NCBI GenBank assembly: GCA_964344935.1
Contig: CAYFPL010000013.1
Span: 27,625 to 91,624 of the forward strand
Length of the DNA stretch: 64,000 nt
Source of the DNA: an uncultured Rhodospirillaceae bacterium
GTDB lineage: Bacteria > Pseudomonadota > Alphaproteobacteria > GCA-2731375
Reading direction: 5' to 3'
Shown: one piece after another, positions 13,198 to 33,858 of the stretch
Layout: every line of letters begins with the position of its first letter
Position numbering within the stretch: position 1 is the first letter of the stretch
Notes under the pieces: model-generated
The model's input: only the letters and a program-made list of their open reading frames with translations
Database searches by the model: none
What the model was told of the DNA's origin: nothing
Program-made: the position numbers and the translations under genes

Positions 13198-13294
13198 GAT
13201 CGTATTGACACCCCGGCCATGACGGCCAGGGCGGCAAAGGCATAAGTGGACGGCACGGTAGCCGGCAAAGTAGACGGCGTGAAAGGAACGATCC

Positions 13295-14317
13295 ATGGCG
13301 GAAGACAGCGCATTCGACCCCCAGACCCTGAATCTGGAGACCGCGCGGGCCCGGCACCGGGAACTGGCGGATGCGGTGATTGCCACGCCTCTGGTGCGCC
13401 TGGCCTCCCCCGCCATCGGCCGGCTGCTGGAGAGCGAAGATATCTACCTGAAACTGGAATGTTTCCAGCACACCGGCACGTTCAAGGCCCGGGGCGCCCT
13501 GTCTGTGGCCCGCGCCATTCCCAGCAGCGATGCCGGCAAGGGCATCACCGCCGCATCCGCCGGCAACCATGCCATCGCCGCTGCCTGGGCGGCGCGGCAA
13601 CTGGGCATGAGCGCCAAGGTGGTGATGCAGGCCACCGCCAATCCGTTCCGGGTCGGCATGGCCCAGGCCGAAGGCGCCGAACTGATCATGAAGCCGGACG
13701 GCATGGCCGCCATTGGCGAGGCGGAGCGCCTGGCGCGAGACGAGGGGCGCACCTTCATCCATCCCTTCGAGGGCATCAACACCACCCTGGGTGCCGCCGG
13801 CGTGGGGCTGGAGATTATGGATGCCCAGCGGGACCTCGAGGCCGTGGTGGTCTCGGTCGGCGGCGGCGGTTTGATCAGCGGCGTGTCCGCCGGCGTCAAG
13901 CTGGTGAACCCTGACTGCGCCGTCTATGGCGTCGAACCGGTGGGCGCCGACAGCGTCTCCCGCAGCCTGGCCGCCGGCGAACCGGTGACCCTGGACAAAG
14001 TGGACACCATCGCCGACAGCCTGGGTCCCCCGATGTCCCTGCCCTATGGCCTGTCCGTCATCCGCGCCTTCGTGGACGATGTGGTGACCATCACCGACGA
14101 TCAGATCCTCGCCGGCCTCGTGGTCTGCCAGGAAGAGGGCAAGCTGGCCGTCGAACCCGCCGCCGGCGCCGCCATGGCCGCGGCCCTGGGCCCCTTGCGG
14201 GCGCGCCTTAGGGGCAAGCGCACCTGTATCCTGATCTGCGGCGCCAACATCGACGGCGAAACCTACACCGCCCAGCACCAACGCGGCCGGGCCCACGTGG
14301 CGGCGCTGATGGGATAG
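13295..14317 (+). CDS. Threonine/serine dehydratase (PLP fold-type II, catabolic-type, no ACT domain)
   Basis: LKLECFQHTGTFKARGA, SAGNHA and GGGGL motifs. The last ~25 codons (ICGANIDGETYTAQHQRGRAHVAALMG*) are the sequence copied in the downstream repeat array. Confidence 0.85.
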   Translation: MAEDSAFDPQTLNLETARARHRELADAVIATPLVRLASPAIGRLLESEDIYLKLECFQHTGTFKARGALSVARAIPSSDAGKGITAASAGNHAIAAAWAARQLGMSAKVVMQATANPFRVGMAQAEGAELIMKPDGMAAIGEAERLARDEGRTFIHPFEGINTTLGAAGVGLEIMDAQRDLEAVVVSVGGGGLISGVSAGVKLVNPDCAVYGVEPVGADSVSRSLAAGEPVTLDKVDTIADSLGPPMSLPYGLSVIRAFVDDVVTITDDQILAGLVVCQEEGKLAVEPAAGAAMAAALGPLRARLRGKRTCILICGANIDGETYTAQHQRGRAHVAALMG

Positions 14318-14400
14318 CGCCGCCCGGGTGTGGCAGCGCTGATCCGCATCGGCCCCGGATCTATTTCAGCCCAGCGGCCGACATTGTCCGCTTTGTGCTA
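14236..14400 (+). repeat. R0: native copy of the array repeat (3' ~80 nt of the dehydratase gene + ~85 nt downstream)
   Basis: Serves as the reference for the degenerate copies R1-R4. Confidence 0.8.
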
Positions 14401-14515
14401 GAAAGGGGCATCGGCAGGCGGAATTTTGGATCGTCCCGACAAGTGTCATTTCATCGACCAAGGTCGTCCAACCGCTTGAAGGCTCGTCGTCACTCCGCCG
14501 TTCTCGGCAAGAATC

Positions 14516-15829
14516 TTGCTTGCTACACTGCCAAATTGGCAACGGTCACCTATTTGGAACCATGATATTTTGATGGATCAGTTGAACGTCACTGCGGACA
14601 ACGCCGCGCGGCGGTTGATACGTTGGTGGGCGAGGCTCGGGATCGAACCCTATCCACCGCGCACCCGGCGACGGCTGGCCCTGATCAACGTCGTGGCGTT
14701 GATCTGTGCGGGCCTTTCCTATGGCTACGCCATCCTCAATCTGGTCGAGGATGCCATCGGCCTTTGGGCGCCGATGCTGGTGATCGTGGTGCAGGGCGCG
14801 TTGTTCTTGTGTACCCCTCTTTGGCATCGCTTCGGCGATCTGGCGGCGGCGTTCTACTTCATATTTATCTGGCTCACCAACGTTCTGGTGGTTGCGCTGA
14901 TGGCCGGCGTCGATACCGGGGCGCATTTCTATTTTCTTCCCGGCGCCGCCGGCATGCTGCTCTTTCTGGGACCGGGGCGCATTCGTCTGGCGTCCGCGCT
15001 GGCCTTGATCCCGCTGGCGCTATTCATATCCATCGAGGCGACGCAACCGGCCACGGCAAGTTTCGTCCGCGTCGACCAGGCTTATCTGACCACAAACTAT
15101 TATGCGGGCATCGTAGGTTCCTACTTCATGATCTTTGTCATGTTGATCTACGCCTTCCGCGAGACCTCCCGCGCCGAGGACGCGCTCGAACGCGAGCATG
15201 CCCGCTCGGAGCGGCTGCTCGGCAATTTGCTACCCGAAAGCATCGCGCTTCGCCTCAAGGACGAGCCTGACAATGTGATCGCCGACGATCTGGGGCATGT
15301 CACGATCCTATTCGCCGACATCGTCGACTTCACGCCGAGGGCGCAGCGGCTGACACCGCCGGAATTGGTCGCCTTCTTGAATCGTGTCTTCACCGAATAC
15401 GACGGGTTGGCCGAGAAATACGGACTCGAGAAGATCAAGACCATCGGCGATGCCTACATGGTCGCCGCCGGCATGCCTGATCCGCGCCACGATCACGCCC
15501 AGGCCGTGGCCGACATGGCGCTCGATATGTTGCAGGTCACCGCCAAACTCGGACGCGAGATTGGCGAGGACCTGTCGGTTCGCATTGGCCTTCACACCGG
15601 CAATGCGGTGGCCGGGGTTATTGGCACGCGAAAGTTCTTCTATGACGTTTGGGGAGACACGGTGAACACCGCAGCGCGGATGGAAAGCCACGGTGAGCCG
15701 GGCCGCATTCAGGTCACTTCCGAGGCCAAGGAAGTGCTGTCCGACGTCTTCACATTCGAACCAAGGGGTGAAGTAGAGATCAAGGGCAAAGGGCGGATCC
15801 ACACCTGGTGGCTCACTGGGCGAGCTTGA
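14516..15829 (+). CDS. Membrane-anchored class III adenylate/guanylate cyclase
   Basis: N-terminal multi-TM region, then a CYC domain: ILFADIVDFT...KIKTIGDAYM...GDTVNTAARMES. The stop abuts repeat R1. Confidence 0.8.
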   Translation: MLATLPNWQRSPIWNHDILMDQLNVTADNAARRLIRWWARLGIEPYPPRTRRRLALINVVALICAGLSYGYAILNLVEDAIGLWAPMLVIVVQGALFLCTPLWHRFGDLAAAFYFIFIWLTNVLVVALMAGVDTGAHFYFLPGAAGMLLFLGPGRIRLASALALIPLALFISIEATQPATASFVRVDQAYLTTNYYAGIVGSYFMIFVMLIYAFRETSRAEDALEREHARSERLLGNLLPESIALRLKDEPDNVIADDLGHVTILFADIVDFTPRAQRLTPPELVAFLNRVFTEYDGLAEKYGLEKIKTIGDAYMVAAGMPDPRHDHAQAVADMALDMLQVTAKLGREIGEDLSVRIGLHTGNAVAGVIGTRKFFYDVWGDTVNTAARMESHGEPGRIQVTSEAKEVLSDVFTFEPRGEVEIKGKGRIHTWWLTGRA

Positions 15830-15980
15830 AGGATGGCGCCCGGCACACCCGCGACTGGGCCCATGTCGCGGCGCTGATGGAATAGCGCGGGCGGGCGCAG
15901 GACTGCCGATCCGAATTGGAACAGGATCTATTTCAACCGAGCGGCCGCCCATGTCTGCTTCGTGCCACAAGCGGACATTA
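15829..15980 (+). repeat. R1: degenerate copy of the dehydratase 3' end and downstream region
   Basis: cacacccgcgactgggcccatgtcgcggcgctgatggaatag...ggatctatttcaaccgagcggccgcccatgtctgcttcgtgcc aligns with the native 14270-14400. Confidence 0.8.
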
Positions 15981-16023
15981 CAGTACTTCGCATTGTCGTC
16001 CCATTGGCGCACAATAGTGTTCC

Positions 16024-16857
16024 ATGAGATCTATGGTTACGACGTTCCTGTTGGTTAGCTGCCTTATCTTTCCTGACGGCGGGATGGCCGAGAAACGAGC
16101 CGTCGATTTGGAGCTGGTGCTGGCGGTCGACATTTCGCGCAGCATGGACTTGGATGAGGCTGCGCTGGTGCGTCAGGGCTTTGTCCGTGCCCTCCGTCAC
16201 CCTGATGTCGTTGCTGCAATCGAACGGGGCCGGCTCGGGCGCATCGCCGTCACTTATGTTGAATGGGGCAGCGAGCGATACCAAAGAGTGCGGGTCGATT
16301 GGTCTGAATTGTCCGACGCGGCCAGCGCCGCCGCATTCGCCGAGGAGATCGAGCGGTCCAGCGTCTTCCTTGTTGAGTATACCTCAATCAGCGATGCCAT
16401 TGCGTTCGCCAGCCGGCACTTCAAGAACAACGGTTTTCAAGGCGAGCGGCGCGTCGTCGATATCTCCGGTGACGGCCCGAACAATAGCGGCCCCTACGTG
16501 AACCTTGCTCGCGACCAGGCGACTGCCGAGGGCATTGTCATTAATGGTCTGCCCATCGTCAACGACCGCCCCAACGTCTATAGCTTTCCGCCATTTCCCG
16601 ATCTTGACCTATATTACGAGGACTGCGTCGTCGGCGGCCCTGGCGCATTCATCGTAGTTGCCGATGGCTTTGAGGATTTTGCTCGCGCCATTCTTCGCAA
16701 GCTGGTGACGGAGATAGCTGATCGATCACCTCCGCAAGGTCGCATATGGTTGACCGCAACCAGACCTCGACCACCCTGCAATGCGGGAGAGCTGCAGCTT
16801 CAGGAGTTCCAAAGAAATCCAACCTGGCGACAACCTATTCCCCTGTACGACTTTTAA
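16024..16857 (+). CDS. DUF1194 (VWA-like) domain protein with signal peptide
   Basis: LVLAVDISRSMD is a MIDAS-like DxSxS motif. VDISGDGPNN is typical of DUF1194. Confidence 0.6.
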   Translation: MRSMVTTFLLVSCLIFPDGGMAEKRAVDLELVLAVDISRSMDLDEAALVRQGFVRALRHPDVVAAIERGRLGRIAVTYVEWGSERYQRVRVDWSELSDAASAAAFAEEIERSSVFLVEYTSISDAIAFASRHFKNNGFQGERRVVDISGDGPNNSGPYVNLARDQATAEGIVINGLPIVNDRPNVYSFPPFPDLDLYYEDCVVGGPGAFIVVADGFEDFARAILRKLVTEIADRSPPQGRIWLTATRPRPPCNAGELQLQEFQRNPTWRQPIPLYDF

Positions 16858-17218
16858 TATCTTCAAACAGGCGTGCCCGATTGAGTGCAGCTCCAAGCAT
16901 CTGAATTGAGGCCATCTCGACGGCAATTTTGCATTCCAACAATGCTTGATGTTGGATGAACAGCGGAATTGGGGTAGGCGACGCATATCGGCAGGTCTGT
17001 GCCATGGGCCGACATCGGTCGCCTCACATAACCTGCATGGATTTGGTGTTCGAGGGTCGTTACACTCCGGTGCATGTCAGGCGGACCCCAGCGTAGATTG
17101 GCGGCCATCGATGCCACCGACATCTTCGGCTATTCGAGGTCGTGCCTTGCCAACTGAGTGTAGGATTGCTGTCACGACCAAGATTACGATTCAATATTGC
17201 GGATAGGCAGAGACAAAC

Positions 17219-17989
17219 ATGCGATTAGAAAACAAAGTGGCACTGTTGACAGGTGCCGCCGCCGCGATAGATGGCGAGCTGATGGGCTTTGGCGGGGCAT
17301 CCGCCCACTTGTTCGTCCGGGAGGGCGCAAAGGTTGTCTTGACCGACATTCGCGATGAGTTGGGCGAGCGATCGGCCGCTGCCCTGCGGGACAAGGGGGC
17401 CGATGCCATCTACCGGCATCTGGATGTCACCTCTGAAGCGGATTGGAACCAGGCCGTTGAAGACACAATGGAGGCATTCGGCCGCCTCGATATCCTGTTC
17501 AACAACGCCGGCGTCGCCTTTCCCACGAAGATCGAGAATTTATCGGAGGAGACTTGGGACCTCGAACTTGCCGTGCATGCCAAGGGCGCCTTTCTTGGCA
17601 CCAAGTCCGTCATTCCGGCCATGCGCCGGGGTGGCGGCGGATCGATCATCAACACCTCATCCATAATGGGTATCGTGGGCAGTCCGACGACGCCTGCCTA
17701 TTCCGCCGCCAAGGGGGCCATCCGGCTGTTTACCAAAACCGCGGCGCTGCAGTATGCGGCGGAAAATATACGCGTGAATTCAATTCATCCCGGATATGCG
17801 ACCACCCCACTTACCGCCGAACGGTTCAGCGACCCAGAGGTCAACGAAGTCCTGTTGGCGAGGACCCCCATGGGCCGGCTTGGAACAGCTGAAGATATCG
17901 CCAACGGTGTTTTGTTTCTGGCCTCCGACGAATCCGCTTGGATGACCGGTTCCGAACTTGTCATAGATGGCGGCATGACCGCTCAATAA
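17219..17989 (+). CDS. SDR-family oxidoreductase
   Basis: TGAAAAIDG glycine-rich motif, NNAG, and a YSAAK catalytic Y-x-x-x-K. Confidence 0.85.
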   Translation: MRLENKVALLTGAAAAIDGELMGFGGASAHLFVREGAKVVLTDIRDELGERSAAALRDKGADAIYRHLDVTSEADWNQAVEDTMEAFGRLDILFNNAGVAFPTKIENLSEETWDLELAVHAKGAFLGTKSVIPAMRRGGGGSIINTSSIMGIVGSPTTPAYSAAKGAIRLFTKTAALQYAAENIRVNSIHPGYATTPLTAERFSDPEVNEVLLARTPMGRLGTAEDIANGVLFLASDESAWMTGSELVIDGGMTAQ

Positions 17990-18229
17990 ATACCGGCTGG
18001 GAAAGTCCGGCCCGAATAATCTGTGGACGGCCAACAATATGGATAGAATCTCAGAGTTCGATCCCAGTCATTCTTGTTGATCCCCAGTTTTTCCGGCAAT
18101 GCGCGAAGTCGGGAAACCAGCGGAAACTGGTCTCAGAGGCGCTGAGTAACCATGTGTGCCATAAGCAGACATCATCCCTCGCTTCAATCCGCGTAGATTC
18201 CCTGTGCGGCGATAGTTACACTCGACCCT

Positions 18230-19960
18230 ATGGTGGAGGGAACACAACGTAGGCTAGCAGCCATTTTGGCCGCTGATGTTGTCGGCTATTCCAGCCTGAT
18301 GGGTGAGGACGAGGCCGGCACTTTATCTGCACTTCGATCAATGCGTACTGACTTGTTAGTACCGGCTGTCAGCGCCCATCGCGGCACCATCGTGAAAAGC
18401 ATGGGCGATGGCTGGTTGATTGCATTCGACAGTGCTGCGGAAGCGGTCAGTTGTGCGGTCGAATGGCAGGAAAAACTGTCCGAGCAAGCGTATCTGGCTG
18501 TAAGGATGGGCCTTCATATCGGCGATGTTACCTACGCTGATGGCGACGTGTACGGCGATGGCGTCAATATTGCTGCACGCCTGCAGGAAATCGCCGAGCC
18601 TGGCGCCATCGTGATTTCAGAGACGGCGAAAAGAAGCATCGATGGGCGGCTGGCAACTGATTTCAACGATCTAGGGCGGGTTGAGTTAAAGAACATCGCC
18701 GAGCCTGTCACAGCGTTCGGTTGGGGCATGTCTGCCGTCGCGGCCGACGCCGTCACGTTGCCCTTGCCCGATAAGCCCTCGATCGCAGTTCTGCCCTTCA
18801 ACAATATGTCGGGCGATCCAGAACAGGAGCACTTCGCCGACGGCATCGCCGAAGACATCATTACATCGTTATCAAAATTCCACCTATTCTTCGTGATCGC
18901 CCGTAACTCCAGTTTTACATACAAGGGCAGACCAGTTGACGCGAAGCAAGTGGGGCAGGAACTTGGTGTACGTTACATATTGGAAGGTAGCGTGCGCAAG
19001 GCCGACAATCGAATTCGGATCACATCCCAGTTAATCGAAGCTGCAACCGGGCATCAAGTTTGGGCAGAGCGCTACGACCGCGAACTCCATGACATCTTCG
19101 CTTTGCAAGACGAGATGACGGACACGATTGTCGGCGCTTTGGAACCCGAGATCGGGGCGGCGGAACGCAACCGCGCCAAGCGGAAAAGACCCGATAGCCT
19201 TGACGCCTGGGAGTTTTATCAACGGGGGCTTTGGCATCTTTGGCGAACAACGATGTCTGATTACACAGAGGCGGAAAGACTTTTTGACAGCGCAATTGAA
19301 CTGGATTCCGGGTTCGCTCCGGCCCATGCAAGCCTTTCCTATCTCAACTTTGCCAGAGTCCTGTTCGGATGGACGGACAAACCAGAAGATTGTCTCGACA
19401 ATGCTCTGCGCACCGGAAAACAGGCAGTGGCGGCGGATGAAAACGACGCTTTCGGCCATTATGCACTGGGCCGAATTCATAGCATGAGAGGTGAATTTGA
19501 TGCCGCTATTGCGGAATTGGAAAAGTCACTCGAACTCAACCCCAATCACGTACATGCGGAATTTGGTCTCGGATTTGTGCATTGTTGGCGGGGCAAACCG
19601 GAAGAGGCGCTGCCGCGCTTCGTAAAGGCAATCCGGCAAAGTCCCCGTGATCCGGCGTTCTGGACATTCGAAGGAATGATGGGGTTCGCCCATTTGCAGC
19701 TCGGCCGCTACGATGCCGCGGTCGAATGGTCGAAGAAATCCGTCCGGCATCCGAATAGTACTGTTTGGCCACAATTGAACCTTGCGCGATCGCTGGTAAG
19801 TCTCGGCCAGCTTGATCAGGCGCGCAAGGCATTGAGTGATGCACTTAAGATACAGCCAAATATTTCAGCGAAGACCATCACCATGATGTTTGGCGCGATG
19901 CACAAGGCACATCGGGACTCCTACATTGAGGCCCTCCGCCAAGTGGGCCTGCCCGATTGA
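18230..19960 (+). CDS. Class III adenylate/guanylate cyclase fused to a TolB-N-like middle domain and C-terminal TPR region (paralog 1)
   Basis: RRLAAILAADVVGYS...MGDG...GDGVNIAARL is the cyclase core, then VLPFNNMSGDPEQEHFADG and TPR-like helices. It is a paralog of the genes at 22073, 28183 and 38850. GTG start. Confidence 0.8.
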   Translation: MVEGTQRRLAAILAADVVGYSSLMGEDEAGTLSALRSMRTDLLVPAVSAHRGTIVKSMGDGWLIAFDSAAEAVSCAVEWQEKLSEQAYLAVRMGLHIGDVTYADGDVYGDGVNIAARLQEIAEPGAIVISETAKRSIDGRLATDFNDLGRVELKNIAEPVTAFGWGMSAVAADAVTLPLPDKPSIAVLPFNNMSGDPEQEHFADGIAEDIITSLSKFHLFFVIARNSSFTYKGRPVDAKQVGQELGVRYILEGSVRKADNRIRITSQLIEAATGHQVWAERYDRELHDIFALQDEMTDTIVGALEPEIGAAERNRAKRKRPDSLDAWEFYQRGLWHLWRTTMSDYTEAERLFDSAIELDSGFAPAHASLSYLNFARVLFGWTDKPEDCLDNALRTGKQAVAADENDAFGHYALGRIHSMRGEFDAAIAELEKSLELNPNHVHAEFGLGFVHCWRGKPEEALPRFVKAIRQSPRDPAFWTFEGMMGFAHLQLGRYDAAVEWSKKSVRHPNSTVWPQLNLARSLVSLGQLDQARKALSDALKIQPNISAKTITMMFGAMHKAHRDSYIEALRQVGLPD

Positions 19961-20296
19961 CCCTGACCGCAATCCTACGTGACTTGATGCCGTAACGCGG
20001 TGAGGCTTTGGGCCGCGAGATTGTCCGAGGCCCCTATGTCGACCCATGACCACCGAAACGCGCCGGAAAATGAACTGTAATGCCATCCCGGTTCTAGGAT
20101 CGCTGATTAGCGCATGCTCGAGATTGGGTGTCTTGCAGACATGGACCAAACTTAGGATTTGGTCTGTTCGGTGCCATGAGCGGTTAGGCGGTCTGACCGC
20201 GTTTCAGACGCAATGCCCCTCGGCCGACATTCGCGTTCATGGTTAACGGGCCGTTAGCAAATTCCGGTCACATTCCATAATCCATACATCCTAAGG

Positions 20297-21769: not shown

Positions 21770-21780
21770 GCGATATTTCG

Positions 21781-21934
21781 CGCCTACACCACCTTGCACG
21801 TCCGCGGCCGGGCCCATGTGGCGGCTTTGATGGGATAGGGGCAACAGGGTGTGGGATCGGCGATCTGTATTGGCGCCAGATCTGATTCAGCCGAGCAGGT
21901 GCCCACATCCGCGTTGTGCCAAGAGCGGACTGTC
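21781..21934 (+). repeat. R2: degenerate copy of the dehydratase 3' end and downstream region
   Basis: tacaccaccttgcacgtccgcggccgggcccatgtggcggctttgatgggatag...gatctgattcagccgagcaggtgcccacatccgcgttgtgccaagagcggact aligns to R0/R1. Confidence 0.8.
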
Positions 21935-22072
21935 AAATTCTCTCAATACATGACATCTGGGCCCCAAAATCCGAAGCCGTTCGCGGCGACATGAGCCGAC
22001 AATCGGCAAAACTCGCTCAACTGGTGAAGATTAAATAATATGTCTAGTATATCCCGGTCCGGTTGAACGGAG

Positions 22073-24295
22073 ATGGAGATGGCCGAGGCAGGCGTTGAGC
22101 GGCGGCTGGCAGCAATCGTCATTGCCGATGTGGTGGGGTATTCCAGGCTCATCCGCGAAGACGAGGCGGGCACGTTGGCTCGATTTCAACGCCTGCAAAC
22201 AACGATCTTCCAACCCCGCATCGCCGAGTATGGCGACCGCGTGGTCAAGACCATGGGGGATTCCTATCTGCTTGAGTTCCCCTCTGCCGTCGCCGCCGTC
22301 GAATGCTGTACAGCCATTCAAAAGGCCATGTCCTTTCACGAAATTGAAACGCCGGAGGAAAGGCGGATCAGGTTCCGCGTTGGCATCAACCTGGGCGACA
22401 TTGTTGTCGACGGCGAGGATATTCATGGCGACGGCGTAAATGTCGCGGCGCGACTTGAAAGCATGGCCGAGCCGGGCGGCATACTGGTCTCCAACGCTGT
22501 TTACGAACAGGTGCGGGACAAACTCTCTGCTGGGTTTGAAGACAAGGGCGAGATCGAGGTCAAGAACATCGCCCGCCCCGTGCGGGTGTTCCAGGTACGG
22601 TCGACGGGACCGGCGGCAACCGTGCCGGCGGGCGAAGAGGCTGCGAAACCGCGCGGGAGAATATGGCTCGCAGCAGCCTTGGCGGTCCTGCTGATCGCCG
22701 TTGCCGGTGGCGCCTGGTGGTGGCTGCTCCGTGACGCAGCGCCGGTCGCCGCGAACCCGACAATCGCCGTCCTGCCGTTCGAAAATTTGTCCGAAGACGC
22801 CAGCCAGGCGTATTTCGCGGAAGGCATGGCGGAGGACATCATCACCGATTTGTCGAAGATCGACGGCCTGGCCGTGATTTCGCGCACCAGTTCCTTCTCG
22901 TTCAAGGGCAAGGCCGTCGACATCAAGACCATCGGCAAGGCGCTTAACGCCCGCTACGTGTTGGAGGGTTCAGTGCGCCGCGCCGGTGGCCAGCTCCGTA
23001 TCAATGCGCAGCTCATTGACGCCGCCTCCGGCGGACACCTCTGGGCCGAGCGCTACGACGGCGATGTGGGCAAGGTGTTCGCTTTTCAGGACCAGATGAC
23101 GGCGGCGATCGTCCAAGCTCTGGCAGTGACGGTGACCAAAAGCGAAGGGACGCGTCTGGCGCGCAAGAGAACGAGCAATCCGAAAGCCTACGATTTCATT
23201 CTGCGTGGACGCGCAGCGCTGTACCGGTTCAATCCAAAGAGTCTGTCCCAGGCTGTGGATTTCTATGAGCAGGCAATTGCGCTGGACCCGGATTATGCCG
23301 ATGCCCATGCCGGCCATGCGGCGGCCGCGAGTCAGATCTATCGTTACGATTGGGCCACCTCCGCATTATCGCCGGACGCGGCGCGGGAACTGGCGGAGCG
23401 TTCTATGGTGAGGGCGTTGCAGCTCGATCCGGAAAACGCCAGTGCGCTCACCACACAGGCAAATATGTTGCTGCGGACGAGTGGCAATATGAAGCGAAGC
23501 ATCGAACTCATTCGGCGGGCCATTGCGCTTGAACCCGGCAACTACCATATTCGTCGAACACTGGCATGGCGCTACGCCCAAGCAGATCGGCCCAAGGACG
23601 CACTGCGGGAACTCGATCTCGCGATGCGACTGGCCCCGCGGCCGACACCCGGCGAGGCTGCCCTCATCGGTGATACCTTGTACTACGCTGGTGATGTTCC
23701 GCGCGCGGTGGACTTTCTGGAGATGGCGCGGAAAGGGATGAAGGGCGTTGCCTGGATACGTAGGAAATTGGCAGCAGCTTATTTCGAGGCGGGGCAATTG
23801 GCCAAGGCCAATGCTGAGATCCAAGCATTGCTTGGCGTCAAGAAATGGGCGAATAGGAATGTCCGACGCGAGGCAATGTATCTTAACCATTTAGCCTCTG
23901 GTGTGCGGCAGCGCTATCTCGAATCCTTGCGCCTCGCTGGTCTGCCGGAGTGGCCAAATGGATACGAGCCGGATCTGTCCCAGCAATTGGACGGCGAAGC
24001 GATCCGCAAACTGATTTTCGGCCAGACCCGCATCGGCAGATCGAACGTAGTCGGTCCGTATGTGTCGGACATTGCCCCTAATGGCGATTTCGTGTTTCGT
24101 TTCGGTAAATCCGTCGTCAAAGGACGTTATTGGCTCGACGATGACTCAATTTGCTACAACCTTCCTCGCTGGTATGCCTCCGACAGAGGCTTTTGCGGCT
24201 TGATTCTTCGCAACCCAGACGGCAACTACGAAAAGCAAGACGAGTTCATTCACATCAATCCTAATTCCGTCGGGAAATTTTCGATCAAACGCTGA
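22073..24295 (+). CDS. Cyclase-TolB-like-TPR paralog 2, with a TM helix after the cyclase domain and an extra C-terminal domain
   Basis: Same N-terminal CYC core. RIWLAAALAVLLIAVAGGAWWWLL is a predicted TM helix, then VLPFENLSEDASQAYFAEG. The extra ~120-aa C-terminus was not recognised. Confidence 0.8.
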   Translation: MEMAEAGVERRLAAIVIADVVGYSRLIREDEAGTLARFQRLQTTIFQPRIAEYGDRVVKTMGDSYLLEFPSAVAAVECCTAIQKAMSFHEIETPEERRIRFRVGINLGDIVVDGEDIHGDGVNVAARLESMAEPGGILVSNAVYEQVRDKLSAGFEDKGEIEVKNIARPVRVFQVRSTGPAATVPAGEEAAKPRGRIWLAAALAVLLIAVAGGAWWWLLRDAAPVAANPTIAVLPFENLSEDASQAYFAEGMAEDIITDLSKIDGLAVISRTSSFSFKGKAVDIKTIGKALNARYVLEGSVRRAGGQLRINAQLIDAASGGHLWAERYDGDVGKVFAFQDQMTAAIVQALAVTVTKSEGTRLARKRTSNPKAYDFILRGRAALYRFNPKSLSQAVDFYEQAIALDPDYADAHAGHAAAASQIYRYDWATSALSPDAARELAERSMVRALQLDPENASALTTQANMLLRTSGNMKRSIELIRRAIALEPGNYHIRRTLAWRYAQADRPKDALRELDLAMRLAPRPTPGEAALIGDTLYYAGDVPRAVDFLEMARKGMKGVAWIRRKLAAAYFEAGQLAKANAEIQALLGVKKWANRNVRREAMYLNHLASGVRQRYLESLRLAGLPEWPNGYEPDLSQQLDGEAIRKLIFGQTRIGRSNVVGPYVSDIAPNGDFVFRFGKSVVKGRYWLDDDSICYNLPRWYASDRGFCGLILRNPDGNYEKQDEFIHINPNSVGKFSIKR

Positions 24296-24600
24296 GAGCT
24301 CTCAGGTCCGTTCTGGATCGTATGCCACGAGCGTTCCATGAGCACCTGCGACACATGGTGTGCGAGAGATGAAGAAGGTTTTCCCCGGGTTCGTTCGTCA
24401 CGGGCTGAATCCAAGCCATCGCAGGCGACAACTGGAGGCTTGTACTTCAATGCTTGGTGAGTACCAACTTTGAAACGGCGATGCCCGCTCCCTGTCAGAG
24501 GCCGACGTCGTTAAGCCCAAGAGGTCACCGTTCCTAATGCGGAACAAAGAGCGCGACGGGCTCGGAGAACCCTTTCAGTTCTTCTGAGCCTGCGGCCTCG
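24296..24600 (+). repeat. R2': partial or alternative-form array repeat, sharing the 5' segment of R3
   Basis: 24296-24332 resembles 27115-27160 (ctcaggtccgttctgg... against ctgaggtccgctctgg...). 24549-24598 resembles 27205-27260 (gggctcggagaaccctttcag...gcctgcggcctcgaac). Confidence 0.55.
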
Positions 24601-24849
24601 AACCGCAGGTCGGTGTTCTCGCAGGCGCGCCTGGTTTCATCGGAAGCAAAGATGCGGCGGTAGGGTGTGGCCCAGAGAACCGCAATGGCGCCGAATACAT
24701 ACCAGCCGAGTGACAGGCCATTGCTTCGATTTCGACTCGCCATTGAACCCAAATGAATTAATTCTTTCTGGGGTGCCTTTACCGGTTCAAATTTGTAGCG
24801 GTATGTGATCCCGAGAACACAACCTTGATGTAGCGAATTAGACAAGAAC

Positions 24850-27114
24850 TTGACTGGCAAAACAAAAATTGTGGAAACGACATCGGTTGCCCGCGACGAA
24901 GAGTTCGCCATAAATCAATGGCTCGCAGTCTTTCGAGACGCCAGCACCGAACACATGTACCGGCAATCGCAGTCGGCGACGGAACGGCGTAAGACAATAC
25001 TATTGGCGGTACTGCTTATCGTCGCGATGTTCTTTTTTGTTTTTGCCGCCTACACGGCCTTCGGTCTCGGTCCAGACTTCGTGCAGGCGTTGGCTATCAG
25101 AAGCATCGGATTGGCACTGAGCGTGACGCTTCTCGTAGCCGCATTCAAGCAAGCCTCCTACAAAGTCCTGGATCGAATTTTCATACTATTGGCAGGCGCC
25201 TTTGTCTTCACGACGCTGGCCTTGATGCACCATGTCGATCCAACCCGCATTACTCTGGTTATACGGACGCTGCTGTTCATATCTTTTGGCTATATGCTTC
25301 TACCCATCCCGCTGCTGCCTTTGACGATGTCTTTGTCCGCTCTAGGACTGATCGTGATGTTTCAGGTCGTCTTCTTTTTCGAATTTACCACGCCAGAACG
25401 TATCGTCCTTGTCATCTCGGCGGTTTTTGTGAATGTGATTGGCTACATCACTGCGCGATCAATGTACTGTCAGCGTCGCGAAACCTACGCCAGTCAAATC
25501 TCCCTGGAACGGGCGAACCGGGAATTGCAGGCGATCAGCGATTCCTTGAGCGGCCAAGTCGAATTGCGAGAGGGGCAACTAAGCGAGGCCGCGCGCGAGC
25601 TGCAAGGCCAGGCTGATCAGTTGCGGCTGATTGCCGATGCTATGCCGGCGTTGATCGTTTATGTGGATGCGTCGCAACGCCTGCAATTTGTGAATGAGAC
25701 GGCGGAGCAATGGCTTGCCCGGCCATCGCGCGAGCTTTTGGGCCGCGCAACGTCTGAAGTCTTCGGAGCCTCGTTATCCCACGCCGCGCGACATCAGATC
25801 GATGCGGTTTTGGCGGGGAAACCTCAATTCTTTGAAAGCGCCCAAACCTATCCCGACGGTCAAACACGGGAGGTGGCCGCGAACTATATTCCCCATTTCG
25901 ATGAAAACGGTCTGGTTCTTGGTTTCTATGCCTTGGTTGTCGACATCACCGAACGGCGTGCTTTGGAAGAGCGTCTGAGGCAGTCCGAGAAAATGGAGGC
26001 GATTGGTCATTTGACCGGCGGCATCGCGCACGAATTCAATAATTTGCTGCAGGTCGTCAACGGCAATATCTCGCTTCTGGCGGACGATATTCCAAACGAT
26101 CCGGCGTCAGTCCATCTATTTCGAGCGATCAAAAGGAACGTGGCACGCGGGGCCGAACTGACCAGTCGTCTGCTGTCGTTCGGACGCCGGCAACAGTTGG
26201 CTCCCAAGGCTTTGGTGATCGGTGATGTGCTTGCGGAGATGCAGGGCATGCTGGGGCAGACCCTGGGCGAGATGATTGAGGTCAAGGTCGCACCAGCAGT
26301 TGACGTTTGGGAGGTTGAAGCCGACCCAGGCCAGTTGGAAAACGCCCTGTTGAACCTTACCCTGAACGCCCGCGACGCCATGCCCAATGGCGGTGTCATA
26401 ACACTGTCCGCCGAAAACATCTCGTTCGACGAGGAAGCTTCGGCGGAGCATGAAGAGGCGAGGTCAGGTAGCTACGTAATGTTGAGCGTGACCGACGACG
26501 GCAGCGGCATGACGAAGGAAGCAATGAGCCGCGCGTTTGAACCGTTCTTCACCACCAAGGATGTTGGCGAAGGCACCGGGCTTGGCCTCAGCATGGTCTA
26601 TGGTTTTGCCCAACAATCAGGCGGCTTCGCCGAAATCGATAGCGTGTTGGACCAGGGCACCACCGCACGCTTGTACCTGCCCAGGCTGGTCGGAACGAAG
26701 GGCGAAGAAACGGCCCCTCAGGATGGTCCGGCTGTGACTGATTTGCCCCGCAGCGGCACCATTCTTCTGGTCGAGGATAACGCAGACGTCAGAGGGTCGC
26801 TGGCGGGCGAGCTAACCGGACTGGGCTACAAGGTGATAGAGGCCCATGACGGCGCGGCGGCCTTGGCTCGTCTGGCCGATGAGGGGCAGCTTGATTTGCT
26901 ATTCACGGATGTGGTGATGCCCGGCGGGCTAAATGGTCTTGAGTTAGCGCGTCAGGCGCTACGACTTCGGCCGCAGCTCAAGGTGCTCTATACCACTGGC
27001 TACAGTGATGAAATTATCATCGAAGCGGGGCAGCTGCCGGATGGCGCCACTGTACTACGCAAACCATTCGACAAGGTCGAACTAGCCGCCACGATTTCCC
27101 ACATTCTAAATTGA
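24850..27114 (+). CDS. Hybrid sensor histidine kinase / response regulator (membrane N-terminus, PAS, HisKA, HATPase_c, C-terminal receiver)
   Basis: HEFNNLL is an H-box and GTGLGLS a G-box. The receiver domain includes LLVEDNADVR...DLLFTDVVMPG. The exact start is uncertain. Confidence 0.85.
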   Translation: MTGKTKIVETTSVARDEEFAINQWLAVFRDASTEHMYRQSQSATERRKTILLAVLLIVAMFFFVFAAYTAFGLGPDFVQALAIRSIGLALSVTLLVAAFKQASYKVLDRIFILLAGAFVFTTLALMHHVDPTRITLVIRTLLFISFGYMLLPIPLLPLTMSLSALGLIVMFQVVFFFEFTTPERIVLVISAVFVNVIGYITARSMYCQRRETYASQISLERANRELQAISDSLSGQVELREGQLSEAARELQGQADQLRLIADAMPALIVYVDASQRLQFVNETAEQWLARPSRELLGRATSEVFGASLSHAARHQIDAVLAGKPQFFESAQTYPDGQTREVAANYIPHFDENGLVLGFYALVVDITERRALEERLRQSEKMEAIGHLTGGIAHEFNNLLQVVNGNISLLADDIPNDPASVHLFRAIKRNVARGAELTSRLLSFGRRQQLAPKALVIGDVLAEMQGMLGQTLGEMIEVKVAPAVDVWEVEADPGQLENALLNLTLNARDAMPNGGVITLSAENISFDEEASAEHEEARSGSYVMLSVTDDGSGMTKEAMSRAFEPFFTTKDVGEGTGLGLSMVYGFAQQSGGFAEIDSVLDQGTTARLYLPRLVGTKGEETAPQDGPAVTDLPRSGTILLVEDNADVRGSLAGELTGLGYKVIEAHDGAAALARLADEGQLDLLFTDVVMPGGLNGLELARQALRLRPQLKVLYTTGYSDEIIIEAGQLPDGATVLRKPFDKVELAATISHILN

Positions 27115-27425
27115 AGTCATAAGCCTCTGAGGTCCGCTCTGGGTCAAATGCCGACGCACGTGGGCTCCAGAGATCATCATTCCCAGTGCGGCACTAACAG
27201 CTCAACGGGCTCCGAGAACCCTTTTTTCAGCGCCTCAGTGCCTGCGGCATCAACATCGACGGCGAAACCTACACCGCCCAGCACGAACGCGACCGGGCGC
27301 ACGTGGCCCGGCTGATGAGAAAGCGGCGGCAGGGTGTGGGACCGCCGATCCGTAAAACAGCCGATTATTTATCCGCCGAGCGACCGGATAAGAATGCCTG
27401 CATTGTGTCATGGGCGGACATTGCC
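27115..27425 (+). repeat. R3: long form of the array repeat (5' extension + a frameshifted copy of dehydratase codons + the downstream part)
   Basis: 27247-27300 ctgcggcatcaacatcgacggcgaaacctacaccgcccagcacgaacgcgaccgggcgcacgtgg is near-identical to native 14242-14300 with a 1-nt deletion. The downstream part aligns to R0-R2. Confidence 0.85.
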
Positions 27426-27522
27426 AAAACCTGATAGACACGAAGAGTATGGAAGTCGGGTTTTGCAAAGCCGGTTAAGTGCGATCAATTCGAACCGTAA
27501 TCACCACCGAAAAGGATTCATC

Positions 27523-27942
27523 ATGGCAATTGAACTAAACCACATGATCGTCCATGCCGTGGACCAGCAAAAGTCGGCTCAGTTTTACTGCGACATTTTC
27601 GGATTAGAGTACCAAGAGTTATTTGATGGCCACTTTCTGGCGGTTCGCATAAACGGATCGCTGACGCTTGACTTTGAACGCGTCATGAACCCGCCAACTA
27701 TGAGGCAACATCTTGCATTCAAAGTCAGCGAGCCGGAATTTGATGAGATATTTGATCGGATCAGGGCGGGTAAAATTCCATACAACAGTTCGCCTGACTA
27801 TAGGGCCATGGATATGAAGGTTAATCACCACAACGGTGGGCGAGGGGTATACTTCCGAGATCTGGACGGAAATATGCTGGAAATTCTGACGGCGGACTAT
27901 GATGACAGCCAGCCCTTCGAGTACGGCATTCATGATCGTTGA
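27523..27942 (+). CDS. VOC (glyoxalase/bleomycin-resistance/dioxygenase) family protein
   Basis: MAIELNHMIVHAVDQQKSAQFYCDIFGL and YFRDLDGNMLEI are the two VOC beta-alpha-beta-beta-beta module motifs. Confidence 0.75.
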   Translation: MAIELNHMIVHAVDQQKSAQFYCDIFGLEYQELFDGHFLAVRINGSLTLDFERVMNPPTMRQHLAFKVSEPEFDEIFDRIRAGKIPYNSSPDYRAMDMKVNHHNGGRGVYFRDLDGNMLEILTADYDDSQPFEYGIHDR

Positions 27943-28182
27943 GGCCAGTCTGTGCGGCCTAGCCGCGCAAGGAATGTTGATCATTGAAAAACGAAGTGCC
28001 GCCGCGTGCATCGCCGTCAATCACTGAAAAGCCGGGGTTTGGATCGGGAACCGCGCGCTCCCAAACGGTCGCGGCAATTTCATCGGCCACCGCCGCCCTG
28101 GTTCGAAAACGGCCCCTTTGCGTCTGCCTCGCCTAGTTTTCTTTCTCGGTTGAATTAGAATGTCTCGGAAGGAGGCGTTCCA

Positions 28183-29952
28183 TTGCAGCGCGAGAATCGT
28201 AGACTGGCCGCCGTCGTTTCGGCTGATGTCGCTGGCTACAGCCGGCTCATGGGGCTTGATGAAACGGGTACGTTGCAGCGCCTGAAGGCGCACCGCGCCG
28301 AGTTGATCGATGATATGATCGGCCGGCACGGTGGCCGAATCGTCAAGACGACAGGTGATGGCCTATTGTCGGAGTTCCCCAGCGTCGTCGCCGCCGTCGA
28401 GTGCTGCCTCTCCGTGCAAGCGGGCATGGCCGAGCGTAATGCGGGTATCCCCGACAACGAGGCGATCCGCTTTCGCATCGGCGTGCATCTGGGCGACATC
28501 ATTGTTGATGGTGATGACATCTTCGGTGATGGTGTAAACATCGCGGCGCGCTTGCAGGAGATCGGCGAGGCAGGTGGTGTGACCGTGTCGGCGGTCGTAC
28601 ATGACTATCTGGATGAAGCCACCGCTGCCCGTTTCGTGGATCTGGGCGAACGGGAGTTAAAGAACATCCGTCGTGCGGTTCGAACCTGGCAATGGCGCCT
28701 GGCCGAAGCATCGCCCGTCAGCAGCGTTGATGTGTCGCAACAAGTAGCGGGTTTTGATGGCAGGCCCGCCATTGCGGTGCTGCCATTCGAGAACATGTCG
28801 GGCGATCCGGAACAGGAATACTTCGCCGATGGGATTGCCGACGACATCCTGACACGTCTTTCGATGTGGCGGTTGCTGCCTGTCATAGCGCGAAACTCAA
28901 GTTTCATTTTCAAGGGACGCAACGTCGACATTAAGGAAGTCGGCGAATTGCTGGGCGCGCGTTACGTGCTTGAAGGCAGCGTGCGCAGGGCCGGCGATCG
29001 ACTACGGATCTCGGCGCAACTCATCGATGCAGAAAGTAGCCATCACCTCTGGGCTGATCGCTTCGATGGGGCGGTCGATGATGTCTTCGAATTTCAGGAC
29101 GAGATCACCGATCTCGTGGTTGCCGCGCTGGAAGCTGTTGTCGGCAACGCGGAGCGGCAACGGGCTCGCAAACAAAATCCGAAAAACCTCGGTGCCTGGG
29201 AGCTCTGTCATCGCGGCTGCTGGCATTTGAACCGATTAAATAGGGATGACATTGTCGCCGCAGAGAAGTTGCTACAACAGGCCATCGATATAGAGCCGGA
29301 TTTCGGATACGCGCTCGGCCAATTGGCCCTGGCTAGTGTCTATAAGGTGTTTTTCGGCTGGACCGATGATGTCACCGCCGAACTGGAACTGGCCAAGGTG
29401 AAAGCTCAACAGGCACGGTCCGCAGACGAACTGGAACCGATTAGCCATACCATCCTGTCGTTTGTTCATATGTTTGCGGGCGAACACGCGGCTGCGCGCG
29501 TGGCGGCGCAAAAGGCCATCGACCTCAATCCCAGTCTGCCAATGGCTTACCATGCCATGGGCGCCGCTGTCGGTCTTGATGGAGATCCGGATGGCGGTAT
29601 CGAGCTGTTTATGCAGGGCCAAAGGCTTAGCCCGGACGATCCAAATGCACAATTCCGCCTTGGCGGCATCGCCGGACTGCATATCGCGGCAGGGCGCTAC
29701 GAACAGGCGCTGGAATATGCCGAGCGGGTAACCCAGATGGCGCCGGGCTTTCCCGTTGGGCATCTCAGAAAGGCCGTCGCCTTGGCCGAGTTGGGGCGCG
29801 GCGAGGACGCCGAAGCGGCGCTGGGGGAGTACTTGCGATTCTCGCCGAAGGCAACCGTTCAGTCGGCCCTGACGACGCTTCGGCTCAGTCGTGCCGAGGA
29901 TGTCGCGCGCTACGCCAATTCCCTGCGCAAGGCCGGCCTGCCCGAACAGTAG
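28183..29952 (+). CDS. Cyclase-TolB-like-TPR paralog 3
   Basis: RRLAAVVSADVAGYSRLMGLDETGT...VLPFENMSGDPEQEYFADG plus the TPR tail. TTG start. Confidence 0.8.
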   Translation: MQRENRRLAAVVSADVAGYSRLMGLDETGTLQRLKAHRAELIDDMIGRHGGRIVKTTGDGLLSEFPSVVAAVECCLSVQAGMAERNAGIPDNEAIRFRIGVHLGDIIVDGDDIFGDGVNIAARLQEIGEAGGVTVSAVVHDYLDEATAARFVDLGERELKNIRRAVRTWQWRLAEASPVSSVDVSQQVAGFDGRPAIAVLPFENMSGDPEQEYFADGIADDILTRLSMWRLLPVIARNSSFIFKGRNVDIKEVGELLGARYVLEGSVRRAGDRLRISAQLIDAESSHHLWADRFDGAVDDVFEFQDEITDLVVAALEAVVGNAERQRARKQNPKNLGAWELCHRGCWHLNRLNRDDIVAAEKLLQQAIDIEPDFGYALGQLALASVYKVFFGWTDDVTAELELAKVKAQQARSADELEPISHTILSFVHMFAGEHAAARVAAQKAIDLNPSLPMAYHAMGAAVGLDGDPDGGIELFMQGQRLSPDDPNAQFRLGGIAGLHIAAGRYEQALEYAERVTQMAPGFPVGHLRKAVALAELGRGEDAEAALGEYLRFSPKATVQSALTTLRLSRAEDVARYANSLRKAGLPEQ

Positions 29953-30050
29953 GTCATCGCACGAGGTCATCGAACGCAGCAGTAGCCGTGCGGCTTACGT
30001 ATTTGATATCTCAAACCACCGCCATTTTCGCTGACTAGCCCCCCGTTTCG

Positions 30051-30145
30051 ACGTCATCATCGACGTTGAAACCTATACTGCCCGGAACGCCCAGGGCCGG
30101 GCCCACGTGGCGGGGCGGATGGAATAGCGGTGTGACTTGCGACCG
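30051..30145 (+). repeat. R4: short degenerate copy of the dehydratase 3' end (last recognisable copy in the array)
   Basis: atcatcgacgttgaaacctatactgcccggaacgcccagggccgggcccacgtggcggggcggatggaatag aligns with native 14246-14317. Confidence 0.75.
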
Positions 30146-30232
30146 CCGAAACGCTATGGAGGCAGATTGGTCTGGGCTGAGTTGCCGCCTACGATCGCTT
30201 TGCGCCGGCAGCGCGCATCGGCTGGATGATCC

Positions 30233-31039: not shown

Positions 31040-31404
31040 GACATGACCTCCATCCGCTTGTCGGCCGCAAACCGACCATTCTGACGCCAAGCCTATCCGC
31101 TTGCGTCCGCCATTGTCGAACCGTCTGTCCTTGGTGGCGAAAGCTGAAAGAGCCGCTCGCGCGTCATTGCGTAAAGAGGCAGGTTGCGGACGATATGACG
31201 TCCTGGTAGCGCTGAAGTGTGAATTTCAAGGGACGCTTTTGCGTGTCGAAATCCGGAAACAACCATATTCGGTTCGTGGCGGCGCCACTAGGGTAGGCGG
31301 ATCCGAGCAACCTCCTTCCTTCGACAGGCTGGTTTGTTTGTGCGGCCCGGTCTATCTATTTTGAGCGGACATAAGCCATCAGAATGCGATTGGAGAACGC
31401 CGTT

Positions 31405-33843: not shown

Positions 33844-33858
33844 TGGCATGTTGACGAC

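Follow-up and report, generated by a model that had tools for sequence, protein, structure and literature searches.

In the 64-kb window analysed here, that is, the whole stretch of DNA under study, the 3' end of a gene of the PLP-dependent serine/threonine dehydratase family and the spacer behind it recur downstream as degenerate direct repeats, five in addition to the native copy, and these copies bound five cargo modules made up mostly of signalling genes. On balance, the array is probably the fossil of a series of at least five Campbell-type insertions, in which small, recombinase-less circular modules entered one site. The growth of islands by accretion is known; here it would involve a new target gene, with no recombinase in view.

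The target gene (13295..14317, + strand) encodes a protein of 340 amino acids with a match to Pfam PALP (E 4e-68). Its best NCBIfam match, ilvA_1Cterm, scores 227 bits and lies below the cut-off of 379; as no equivalog cut-off was reached in the NCBIfam search, “threonine dehydratase” is a family-level name only. The genes upstream encode GFA, a WYL/HTH regulator, a GST-like protein and a SnoaL-like protein. The native repeat unit, R0 (14237..14411, + strand, delimited by block identities), comprises the last 27 codons of the dehydratase (~80 nt) and ~95 nt of spacer, and contains an inverted repeat, GATCCG-N9-CGGATC, at 14341-14361. The C-terminus ICGANIDxETYxxLHxRGRxHVAAL is common to the dehydratase and its orthologues at 79-83% identity, and the C-terminal coding part of R0 is present in orthologues from other genera and families; the coding part of the repeat is therefore ancestral dehydratase sequence, and the derivation of the repeats from this gene is directly observed. 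Neither the repeats nor the non-coding block were found with the dehydratase orthologues of other genera.

The original prediction, that degenerate copies of the dehydratase 3' end and its downstream sequence are present, was confirmed by self-BLASTN and by a repeat-finding run on the window, which recovered the same repeat families. With 13295-14520 as the query and the whole window as the target, the proposed self-comparison returned four significant direct copies and nothing else, matching at 15837-15978 in R1 (75%, E 3e-23), 21783-21919 in R2 (74%, E 2e-22), 27242-27407 in R3 (76%, E 1e-29) and 30049-30225 in R4 (65%, E 6e-16); R2', the sixth copy, is heavily degenerate with a 17-nt deletion and was recognised by alignment to R3. 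All lie on the + strand. R1 (15830..15982; BLASTN, alignment and nhmmer) reads ARHTRDWAHVAALME*, its stop codon in register with the native one, and R2 (21783..21936; BLASTN and alignment) reads YTTLHVRGRAHVAALMG*. The segment 24480..24745 (repeat family, alignment and nhmmer) holds a pre-repeat block (24480-24590) followed by R2' (~24590-24745), and 27129..27425 (BLASTN, alignment and block identities) holds a pre-repeat block (27129-27242) followed by R3 (27243-27425). R4, the distal copy (30047..30228; BLASTN, block identities and nhmmer), is the most decayed of all. Two spans had to be revised: R2', previously placed at 24296-24600, occupies ~24480-24745 including the pre-repeat block when aligned to R3, and R4, previously 30051-30145, reaches ~30225. 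All six copies share a single orientation and are found only 3' of the dehydratase, within 16 kb; none of the remaining 48 kb of the window carries a copy by self-BLASTN or nhmmer, and an nhmmer profile built from the six found no seventh in the window, including beyond R4 (next match E 0.56).

Pairwise DNA identity among the repeats is 65-88%. In R0 coordinates, the left edge of homology lies at 14237 for R3 and R4 and at ~14262-14270 for R1 and R2, the right edge at ~14411, and beyond these edges block identities are at random level. Exact matches between any two copies reach no more than 7-19 nt, at differing positions, except for the 34 nt that R0 and R3 share. Comparison of the copies had been expected to define a conserved core and any crossover site; no exact core common to all six was found, and the degenerate block GGGC.CA.GT.GC is the sole element common to the five well-preserved copies. 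R3 is a mosaic, matching the native gene at 95% over its first 42 nt and at 62-79% thereafter, and its stop codon has been lost (TAG>AAG), whereas an in-frame stop codon is kept in register in R1, R2 and R4. R2 has a “TL” variant which is also present in dehydratase orthologues. Of the 46 substitutions in the pseudo-coding parts, nine are synonymous, where ~29% would be expected. Purifying selection on the pseudo-3' ends was considered and dropped, as only the last 12 codons of R2 show it (three synonymous and no non-synonymous changes relative to R0) and the overall pattern is neutral. The copies thus look neutrally decayed, for which reason the array is probably a fossil, and for the same reason the substitutions offer little proof that each copy was once a working 3' end.

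The five modules (1.5-5.9 kb, all co-oriented on the + strand) are non-homologous as units, and their gene content, as assigned by Pfam, bears out the earlier cargo annotation. Module 1 (14412..15829) carries a MASE7 membrane adenylate/guanylate cyclase (ORF 14516-15829, start annotated elsewhere at 14573), the nearest homologue of which is 71% identical at the protein level, lies in an unrelated gene context and, on inspection, has no R-like sequence in its flanks. Module 2 (15983..21782) carries genes for a DUF1194 protein (16024-16857), an SDR (17219-17989), a cyclase-TPR (18230-19960) and an MCP-signalling protein (20297-21769); module 3 (21937..24479) a cyclase-TPR (22073-24295); module 4 (24746..27128) a PAS-HisKA-HATPase-REC hybrid histidine kinase (24850-27114); and module 5 (27426..30046) a VOC/glyoxalase-fold protein (ORF 27334-27942, its true start probably downstream of 27334) and a cyclase-TPR (28183-29952). 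The three cyclase-TPR genes of the array are 33-43% identical among themselves at the protein level and do not resemble one another more than they resemble a fourth copy, at 38778-40643, beyond the array; nothing in the other modules corresponds to module 1 or module 4. The modules are compact, with a largest intergenic gap of 554 nt, which leaves no room for decayed integrases. R4 ends 5 nt short of the stop codon of a convergent class I methyltransferase gene (30233..31090, - strand; Pfam Methyltransf_11), the first gene past the array.

Each copy had been thought to start at or just after the stop codon of the preceding gene. The distance from the stop is indeed short for R1 (8 nt) and R2 (14 nt), but R2' (~185 nt) and R4 (97 nt) lie too far off; R3 fits (15 nt) only when taken together with the 110-nt pre-repeat block that it has in common with R2'. 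This block, found at the right end of modules 3 and 4 and lying beyond the dehydratase homology, is 73% identical between 24480-24590 and 27129-27224, and may be likened to the ends of related elements.

Direct repeats which lie only downstream of the gene, with unrelated cargo between them, support a match to the topology that serial Campbell-type integration at a gene 3' end would leave. As the cargo differs (33-43% even among the cyclase-TPR proteins) while the repeats are 65-88% identical, the repeats were duplicated without the cargo. Judged on the arrangement and divergence of the DNA, the most economical reading would be accretion of integrase-less modules resembling CIMEs. The last ~27 codons of the dehydratase and the spacer behind them would be the insertion site for all modules, and each incoming circle would have borne its own ~150-180-nt version of this segment, so that insertion would rebuild the dehydratase at the left junction and displace the earlier 3' end downstream, where it would decay. 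We infer that the recombination was carried out in trans, as in CIME accretion, by a site-specific recombinase encoded elsewhere. Circular intermediates and the order of events would follow this scheme, and the array would now be immobile, since its copies are so degenerate.

The in-frame stops of R1, R2 and R4, the “TL” variant of R2 and the low GC3 of the cargo count for serial insertion. So does a second case, L040, an unrelated Gemmatimonadaceae locus with the same topology at the 3' end of its dehydratase homologue, in which an insert of 9.3 kb with lower G+C, where no integrase was found, is bounded by direct repeats of ~365 nt that start ~70 nt ahead of the stop codon and include a perfectly identical stretch of 83 nt. 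Against it count the absence of R-like flanks from the closest homologue of the cyclase in module 1, and the repeat homology itself, which spans the whole ~175 nt with no short core and would be expected equally from homologous recombination. The lack of a recombinase in the scanned ORFs, of an empty site and of an exact common core also counts against it. The serial integration originally proposed is supported in part, by the topology and by the failure of segmental duplication, a REP or MITE element, a structured RNA and attC sites as alternatives, whereas its site-specificity gains no support from any recombinase, empty site or exact core.

No integrase, excisionase, transposase, resolvase or relaxase domain was found among the ORFs scanned, either in the array or in the rest of the window, in agreement with the prediction; the scan covered nearly all ORFs of at least 90 aa, as a greedy non-overlapping set. 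ARAGORN found no tRNA or tmRNA in the window, and an Rfam search of 13000-31500 gave no match. When the copies were folded together with alifold the covariation term was unfavourable (+3.6), and their DNA-fold z-scores ranged from -2.8 to +1.6 with no structure in common; a conserved RNA fold was accordingly rejected.

An empty site had been expected in close relatives. The dehydratase was used to scan 185k species genomes, and neither these nor contigs of the same strain offered an empty site or alternative occupancy; the nearest orthologues, 79-83% identical, have different genes directly 3' and do not share the right flank. Within the same strain, the ENA contigs L171, at 99.9% identity to the window, and L172 have the same junctions as the window and so give no structural polymorphism. 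With the two patterns tried, viral contigs yielded no R-like site; one scan of JGI metagenomes for R gave 84 matches, each confined to the seeded 20-mer; and plasmids and phages gave no match. A homologue of the non-coding repeat block was likewise absent from all of these collections.

The displacement of a gene 3' end by an incoming element is familiar from phage 21 and e14 in icd of Escherichia coli, in which the element supplies a substitute 3' end and leaves the gene whole, while the end that it displaces persists as a pseudo-fragment at the far junction. That case, however, concerns a single prophage with its own integrase beside the att site, and not an array of cargo-only modules. Tandem integrase-less islands with repeats of a target 3' end have several precedents (PMC5704250; PMC3146451; bioRxiv 10.1101/2020.12.28.424599). 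The CIMEs of the ICESt1/ICESt3 family, which accrete in tandem at the 3' end of the protein gene fda in Streptococcus thermophilus (PMC5704250), resemble the array in lacking integration and transfer genes, in having att-type direct repeats that originate from the 3' end of a protein-coding target and in their tandem stacking; here, six copies bound five modules, with no such genes in the ORFs scanned. They differ in having short repeats that share an identical core, and in having a known cognate ICE or integrase (PMC5704250), whereas the array has a ~175-nt degenerate repeat in which exact matches of 7-19 nt fall at different positions, cargo-only modules of 1.5-5.9 kb, another target gene and lineage, and no cognate element or integrase among the window ORFs scanned. 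In Dehalococcoides, several islands lie in tandem after ssrA with direct repeats of its 3' end; the islands are low in G+C and 15 of them have no integration module (PMC3146451). The target there is a tmRNA gene, however, the repeat is 20 bp and many islands have a serine recombinase (DsiB) module by attL, of which the array has none (PMC3146451). The absence of an integrase, which had been called unusual, has precedents in CIMEs and in these 15 islands (PMC5704250; PMC3146451). The tycheposons of marine Prochlorococcus likewise integrate repeatedly at one site and push older elements deeper, giving islands of degenerate remnants separated by partial target copies; their targets are tRNAs, though, and they use tyrosine recombinases and leave fragmented integrases (bioRxiv 10.1101/2020.12.28.424599), whereas the repeats here are not partial tRNA or tmRNA copies. 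Integron cassette arrays share with our array the compact, co-oriented units, each followed by a repeat resembling a recombination site, beside a fixed site; however, the genes upstream of the first module (see above) include no IntI with attI and Pc, the fold results show no attC-like hairpin, and the repeat duplicates an adjacent gene's 3' end. Xer modules (IMEX/pdif) use 28-bp dif-like XerC/XerD sites with an 11-6-11 geometry, unlike the one conserved inverted repeat of the array, GATCYG-N9-CRGATC, which is 6-9-6.

If the serial insertion reading is true, the last ~27 codons of a PALP dehydratase gene join the protein-gene targets of island accretion, and a poorly sampled marine alphaproteobacterium owes part of its set of cyclases, kinases and chemoreceptors to very small packages without a recombinase. 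Island finders based on integrases or tRNAs would miss such arrays, and they therefore matter for genome annotation; practical benefit stays limited as long as no recombinase, empty site or variant array has come to light.

Among the alternatives, a RecA route fares best, though we consider it unlikely. Circles of one module and one R would loop out by R x R recombination in related genomes and pass to other cells, with gene transfer agents, vesicles and transformation as possible means; a single RecA-dependent crossover at any R would then re-insert them, with no dedicated recombinase. Homology over the full ~175-nt unit rather than a short core would fit this, as would the mosaic R3, with its 95% over 42 nt and 62-79% thereafter, the long and partly identical repeats of L040 with no integrase found, and the lack of a recombinase in the ORFs scanned across 64 kb. 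However, today's 65-85% identity and exact matches of 7-19 nt are too low for such exchange to be efficient unless the divergence all came after insertion, in which case neutral relics must have outlasted divergence as large as that between genera. A wider and decidedly speculative proposal is that the boundary between the dehydratase gene and the convergent gene next to it serves as a platform for gene capture without any element-borne recombinase, at which cargo-only circles with a ~175-nt target copy are exchanged between related genomes and stacked by an unlinked host recombinase or by homologous recombination; L040 suggests that the same dehydratase 3' end is perhaps used in distant phyla. 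Such a platform, if real, would gather signalling genes in the manner of an integron.

It is improbable that R is instead a functional cis-element, such as a terminator, promoter-leader or protein-binding site, copied beside signalling genes and selected there, with modules that were never mobile. Every copy is intergenic and co-oriented with the genes, and the inverted repeat GATCYG-N9-CRGATC occurs three times against 0.24 expected, the R2 version (GATCTG-N9-CAGATC) being a compensatory double change. It has been lost, however, from R2', R3 and R4; no sigma-70-like promoter or intrinsic terminator lies within any copy, the Rfam, covariation and fold results given above are unfavourable, no co-oriented gene follows R4, and there is no regulatory reason for the unit to include 50-80 nt of dehydratase pseudo-coding sequence.

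Repeated segmental tandem duplication of a unit beginning within the dehydratase 3' end, with the copies then diverging and losing different parts, is largely refuted and very improbable. A cyclase-TPR paralogue does occur in three modules, and a single repeat pair as in L040 could originate in this way, but the cargo is either unrelated, modules 1 and 4 being without counterparts, or 33-43% identical in protein and no nearer mutually than to the copy at 38778-40643, against 65-88% for the non-coding repeats, and five duplications with many precise deletions would be required. That R is a dispersed REP- or MITE-like repeat, one copy of which overlaps the dehydratase end by chance, has nothing more than the multiplicity of copies in its favour and is hardly credible for the window, where, rather than being numerous, dispersed, in both orientations and unrelated to their neighbours, the copies are confined to the array within 16 kb downstream, in one orientation and with none in the other 48 kb, the coding part being ancestral dehydratase sequence orthologous to C-termini in other genera and families and the non-coding block having no homologue in the collections searched; the original prediction had itself named such an element as its refutation.

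Returning to the serial insertion reading, the drop in G+C relative to the left flank that had been claimed is real, with GC3 of 0.72-0.87 in the flank and 0.54-0.75 in the array and its cargo. Low G+C also persists past R4, however, to ~47 kb without further repeats (the methyltransferase gene, with a GC3 of 0.68, is still low), so that composition does not delimit the array. In Dehalococcoides, a similar variable region without repeat signatures extends past the last repeat (PMC3146451). Within this region of the window, an HTH_17 protein (33859-35187) was considered as a hidden recombinase or excisionase and rejected, as it is a FapF/FilC-like outer-membrane barrel; its gene adjoins that of a FapD/FilB-like C39 peptidase.

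The gene at which the array begins encodes a PLP-dependent enzyme of the serine/threonine dehydratase family (13295-14317, 340 aa; Pfam PALP); as no NCBIfam equivalog cut-off was reached, threonine dehydratase is used here as a family-level name only. A BLASTN comparison of this gene and 200 nt of downstream sequence with the whole window returned four further significant matches, all on the same strand and all downstream: R3 at 27242-27407 (76%, E 1e-29), R1 at 15837-15978 (75%, E 3e-23), R2 at 21783-21919 (74%, E 2e-22) and R4 at 30049-30225 (65%, E 6e-16). A separate repeat search of the window recovered the same repeat families, and alignment with R3 allowed a sixth, far more degenerate copy to be recognised, R2' (~24590-24745); a profile built from the six copies found no seventh in the 64 kb. 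The repeat array of the original prediction is therefore borne out by BLASTN, alignment and profile alike, with corrected coordinates for R2' and R4. Identity with the native unit (R0, 14237-14411) starts at 14237 for R3 and R4 and at ~14262-14270 for R1 and R2, ends at ~14411, and falls to a random level beyond both limits, whilst only 5 nt lie between the end of R4 and the stop codon of a convergent methyltransferase gene (30233-31090). These sharp limits, together with the position at which R4 ends, define the unit as the final 27 dehydratase codons and the entire spacer to the next gene. A block of ~110 nt which has no counterpart in the dehydratase gene precedes both R2' (24480-24590) and R3 (27129-27242), the two versions being 73% identical.

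Pfam confirmed the cargo as first listed: a MASE7-cyclase in module 1; DUF1194, SDR, cyclase-TPR and MCP-signalling proteins in module 2; a cyclase-TPR in module 3; a PAS-HK-REC hybrid kinase in module 4; and a VOC protein and cyclase-TPR in module 5. All ten genes lie on the + strand, and in two modules only 8-14 nt separate the cargo stop codon from the repeat. The homologue closest to the module 1 cyclase (71% protein and 75% DNA identity) is found in an unrelated neighbourhood and has no R-like flank, the DNA similarity ending at the stop codon. Intergenic gaps within the array are no longer than 554 nt and thus leave no room for a decayed integrase gene. The absence of integrase, excisionase and transposase from the 64 kb also held, as the ~67 ORFs scanned across the window yielded no recombinase, transposase, relaxase or excisionase domain; no tRNA was found in the window either. 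An HTH_17 match at 33859-35187 was rejected as a recombinase or excisionase because it belongs to a FapF/FilC-like outer-membrane barrel. This barrel follows a FapD/FilB-like C39 peptidase (together 33028-35187), and its excisionase-like segment (residues ~41-90) sits behind a signal-peptide-like N-terminus, an odd location for a DNA-binding fold.

Where unrelated DNA lies between direct copies of a ~175-nt target, Campbell-type insertion of target-carrying circles is the simplest process. The reading we favour, albeit with moderate confidence, is that circles carrying a copy of this target would have inserted by a Campbell-type event at the dehydratase 3' end, that cargo-only modules would have accreted serially at that one site through a recombinase acting in trans, and that the array would then have become fossilised. 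The serial site-specific integration originally proposed is partly supported: insertion stands as the best explanation, but site-specificity and mobility are putative. A parallel was encountered when 78 dehydratase loci were checked for downstream copies of their own 3' end; the single positive, L040, lies on a 350-kb contig of a Gemmatimonadaceae MAG and encodes a dehydratase 49% identical to the query, although 1/78 with no control gene set is an anecdote and not an enrichment. Its direct repeats (L040:10881-11249 and L040:20166-20535; ~365 nt, ~89% identity) start ~70 nt before the dehydratase stop codon, ~6-7 codons upstream of the CG(A/S)NID motif, and reach into the 3' end of the convergent neighbour gene; the second copy lies 9.29 kb downstream, and a stretch of 83 bases over the coding end matches without a single difference. 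The 9.3 kb between them has a G+C of 0.62, compared with 0.68 in the 10 kb upstream, and encodes an S1-type protease-like protein, a lipoprotein-like ORF, an AraC regulator and a GH38 mannosidase, with no recombinase domain found in the insert. L040 matches the array in topology and in position, at a gene only distantly related within the family, and again with no integrase in sight.

No identical core is common to all copies of the array, since exact matches between them span 7-19 nt at differing positions, the exception being R0 and R3, which have 34 identical bases in common; the array is probably now unable to recombine. Compared with the gene, R3 (27243-27425) is a mosaic, in which a first block of 40/42 identical nt (95%), including the 34-nt exact match, is followed by a coding block at 79% and a non-coding block at 62-65%, a pattern for which a crossover point, gene conversion or a recent composite insertion might each account. 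The stop codon in register with the native one is kept in R1 (15830-15982), R2 (21783-21936) and R4 (30047-30228) and lost in R3. R2 reads YTTLHVRGRAHVAALMG followed by the stop, including the 'TL' present in orthologues, and over its last 12 codons three synonymous changes are all that separates it from the native sequence. This was discounted as proof that each copy was once a working gene end because the overall pattern is neutral: 9/46 substitutions over all copies are synonymous, against ~29% expected under random change, and R4 carries many radical replacements. The copies look like neutrally decaying relics.

The main rival retains the insertion topology and replaces the dedicated recombinase with RecA, as homology covering the whole unit, the mosaic R3 and the long L040 repeat would suggest; however, the copies as they now stand are too dissimilar for RecA unless the whole of the divergence postdates insertion, and we regard this rival as possible but unlikely. 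That the repeat is instead a functional cis-element appears improbable. RNA element, attC and expression signal were each rejected, there being no Rfam match even with E relaxed to 1, an unfavourable RNAalifold covariation term, no common shape among the single-strand DNA folds (z-scores -2.8 to +1.6) and no promoter-like or terminator-like site within any copy. R0, R1 and R2 share a conserved inverted repeat, GATCYG-N9-CRGATC with TNWTTCA behind it (14341-14368, 15908-15935 and 21862-21889; three matches to GATCYG-N9-CRGATC against 0.24 expected), which shows a double compensatory change in R2 (C>T / G>A) and is lost from R2', R3 and R4; this inverted repeat may serve as a binding site for a protein or form a weak hairpin.

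Segmental tandem duplication, followed by differential loss, is less credible still. Among themselves, the three cyclase-TPR proteins encoded in the array share 33-41% identity, and they are no more similar to each other than to a fourth paralogue outside it (38778-40643); modules 1 and 4 have no DNA-level counterpart in other modules, whereas the non-coding or pseudo-coding R copies are 65-88% identical. As neutral DNA cannot outlast selected co-duplicated genes in conservation, the repeat was duplicated or imported independently of the cargo. A dispersed REP/MITE-like repeat with one copy overlapping the dehydratase end can be dismissed almost entirely, and within the window is ruled out, because orthologues in other marine Alphaproteobacteria (62-83% identity) carry the same terminal peptide, ...ICGANIDxETYxxLHxRGRxHVAAL..., so that the coding part of the repeat is ancestral dehydratase sequence from which the other copies derive.

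Neither a repeat downstream of the dehydratase nor the non-coding block was found in any of those orthologue-bearing relatives, and searches of IMG/VR, JGI metagenomes, PLSDB plasmids and INPHARED phages turned up no homologue of the block. In the species-level genome scan the closest relative reached 83% protein identity for the dehydratase, other genes (e.g., GFA or arginase) lay directly downstream and none of the relatives linked the window's right-flank genes to the dehydratase; no empty site was found among them. Project PRJEB17505 contributed two short ENA contigs, one of which matches the window at 99.9% identity; both have the same junctions as the window (dehydratase-R0-module 1 and module 1-R1-module 2) and show no structural polymorphism. 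The GFA gene lies 3' of the dehydratase in three relatives (L002, L003 and L165) and 5' of it in the window. In the closest MAG relatives (L001, L061) the dehydratase is preceded, at a distance of ~120 nt, by a zinc-ADH gene with an adjoining aminotransferase, while in the window (2016-13295) this pair is inverted and 10 kb away, so that the left flank, too, has undergone rearrangement or expansion.

Phage 21/e14 and icd exemplify the principle that an element may bring a protein gene a replacement 3' end. Stacked islands separated by repeats of the target 3' end, some without an integration gene, are well documented (PMC5704250; PMC3146451; bioRxiv 10.1101/2020.12.28.424599), and include CIMEs and accretion at fda and other genes (PMC5704250), the Dehalococcoides ssrA islands, 15 of which have no integration module (PMC3146451), and tycheposon remnants in Prochlorococcus (bioRxiv 10.1101/2020.12.28.424599). 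The array has two of the defining features of a CIME, bounding repeats and no mobility genes, but not the common identical core. What sets it apart is the gene targeted, how long and how degenerate the repeat is, the cassette-like packing, the predominance of signalling genes and the lack of any recombinase gene found in 64 kb.

The lower G+C reported for the array relative to the left flank is real, GC3 being 0.72-0.87 across the thirteen genes of which the dehydratase is the last, compared with 0.54-0.75 in the array, but the limits of the array are not marked by composition: past R4 there is no recovery (0.40-0.75 to ~47 kb; low stretch 30233-47700, ~17 kb), and values of 0.73-0.79 return only in genes between ~47.7 and ~53.8 kb. 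The repeat-bounded array occupies the proximal portion of a wider tract of atypical composition, bearing a similarity to the sequence downstream of the last ssrA repeat in Dehalococcoides (PMC3146451). The low stretch holds the fourth cyclase-TPR (38778-40643) and a PAS-GGDEF gene (41226-42503), and a direct-repeat pair at 42723-42861 and 46401-46539 (139 nt at 82%, ~170 nt with gaps) brackets a 3.7-kb segment with a ZnuA-like gene and three minus-strand ORFs without a Pfam match; this pair could be another insertion scar or represent paralogous gene starts. A further direct repeat, 51404-51496 and 51815-51907 (93 nt, 72% identity, 411 nt apart), overlaps ORFs without a Pfam match.
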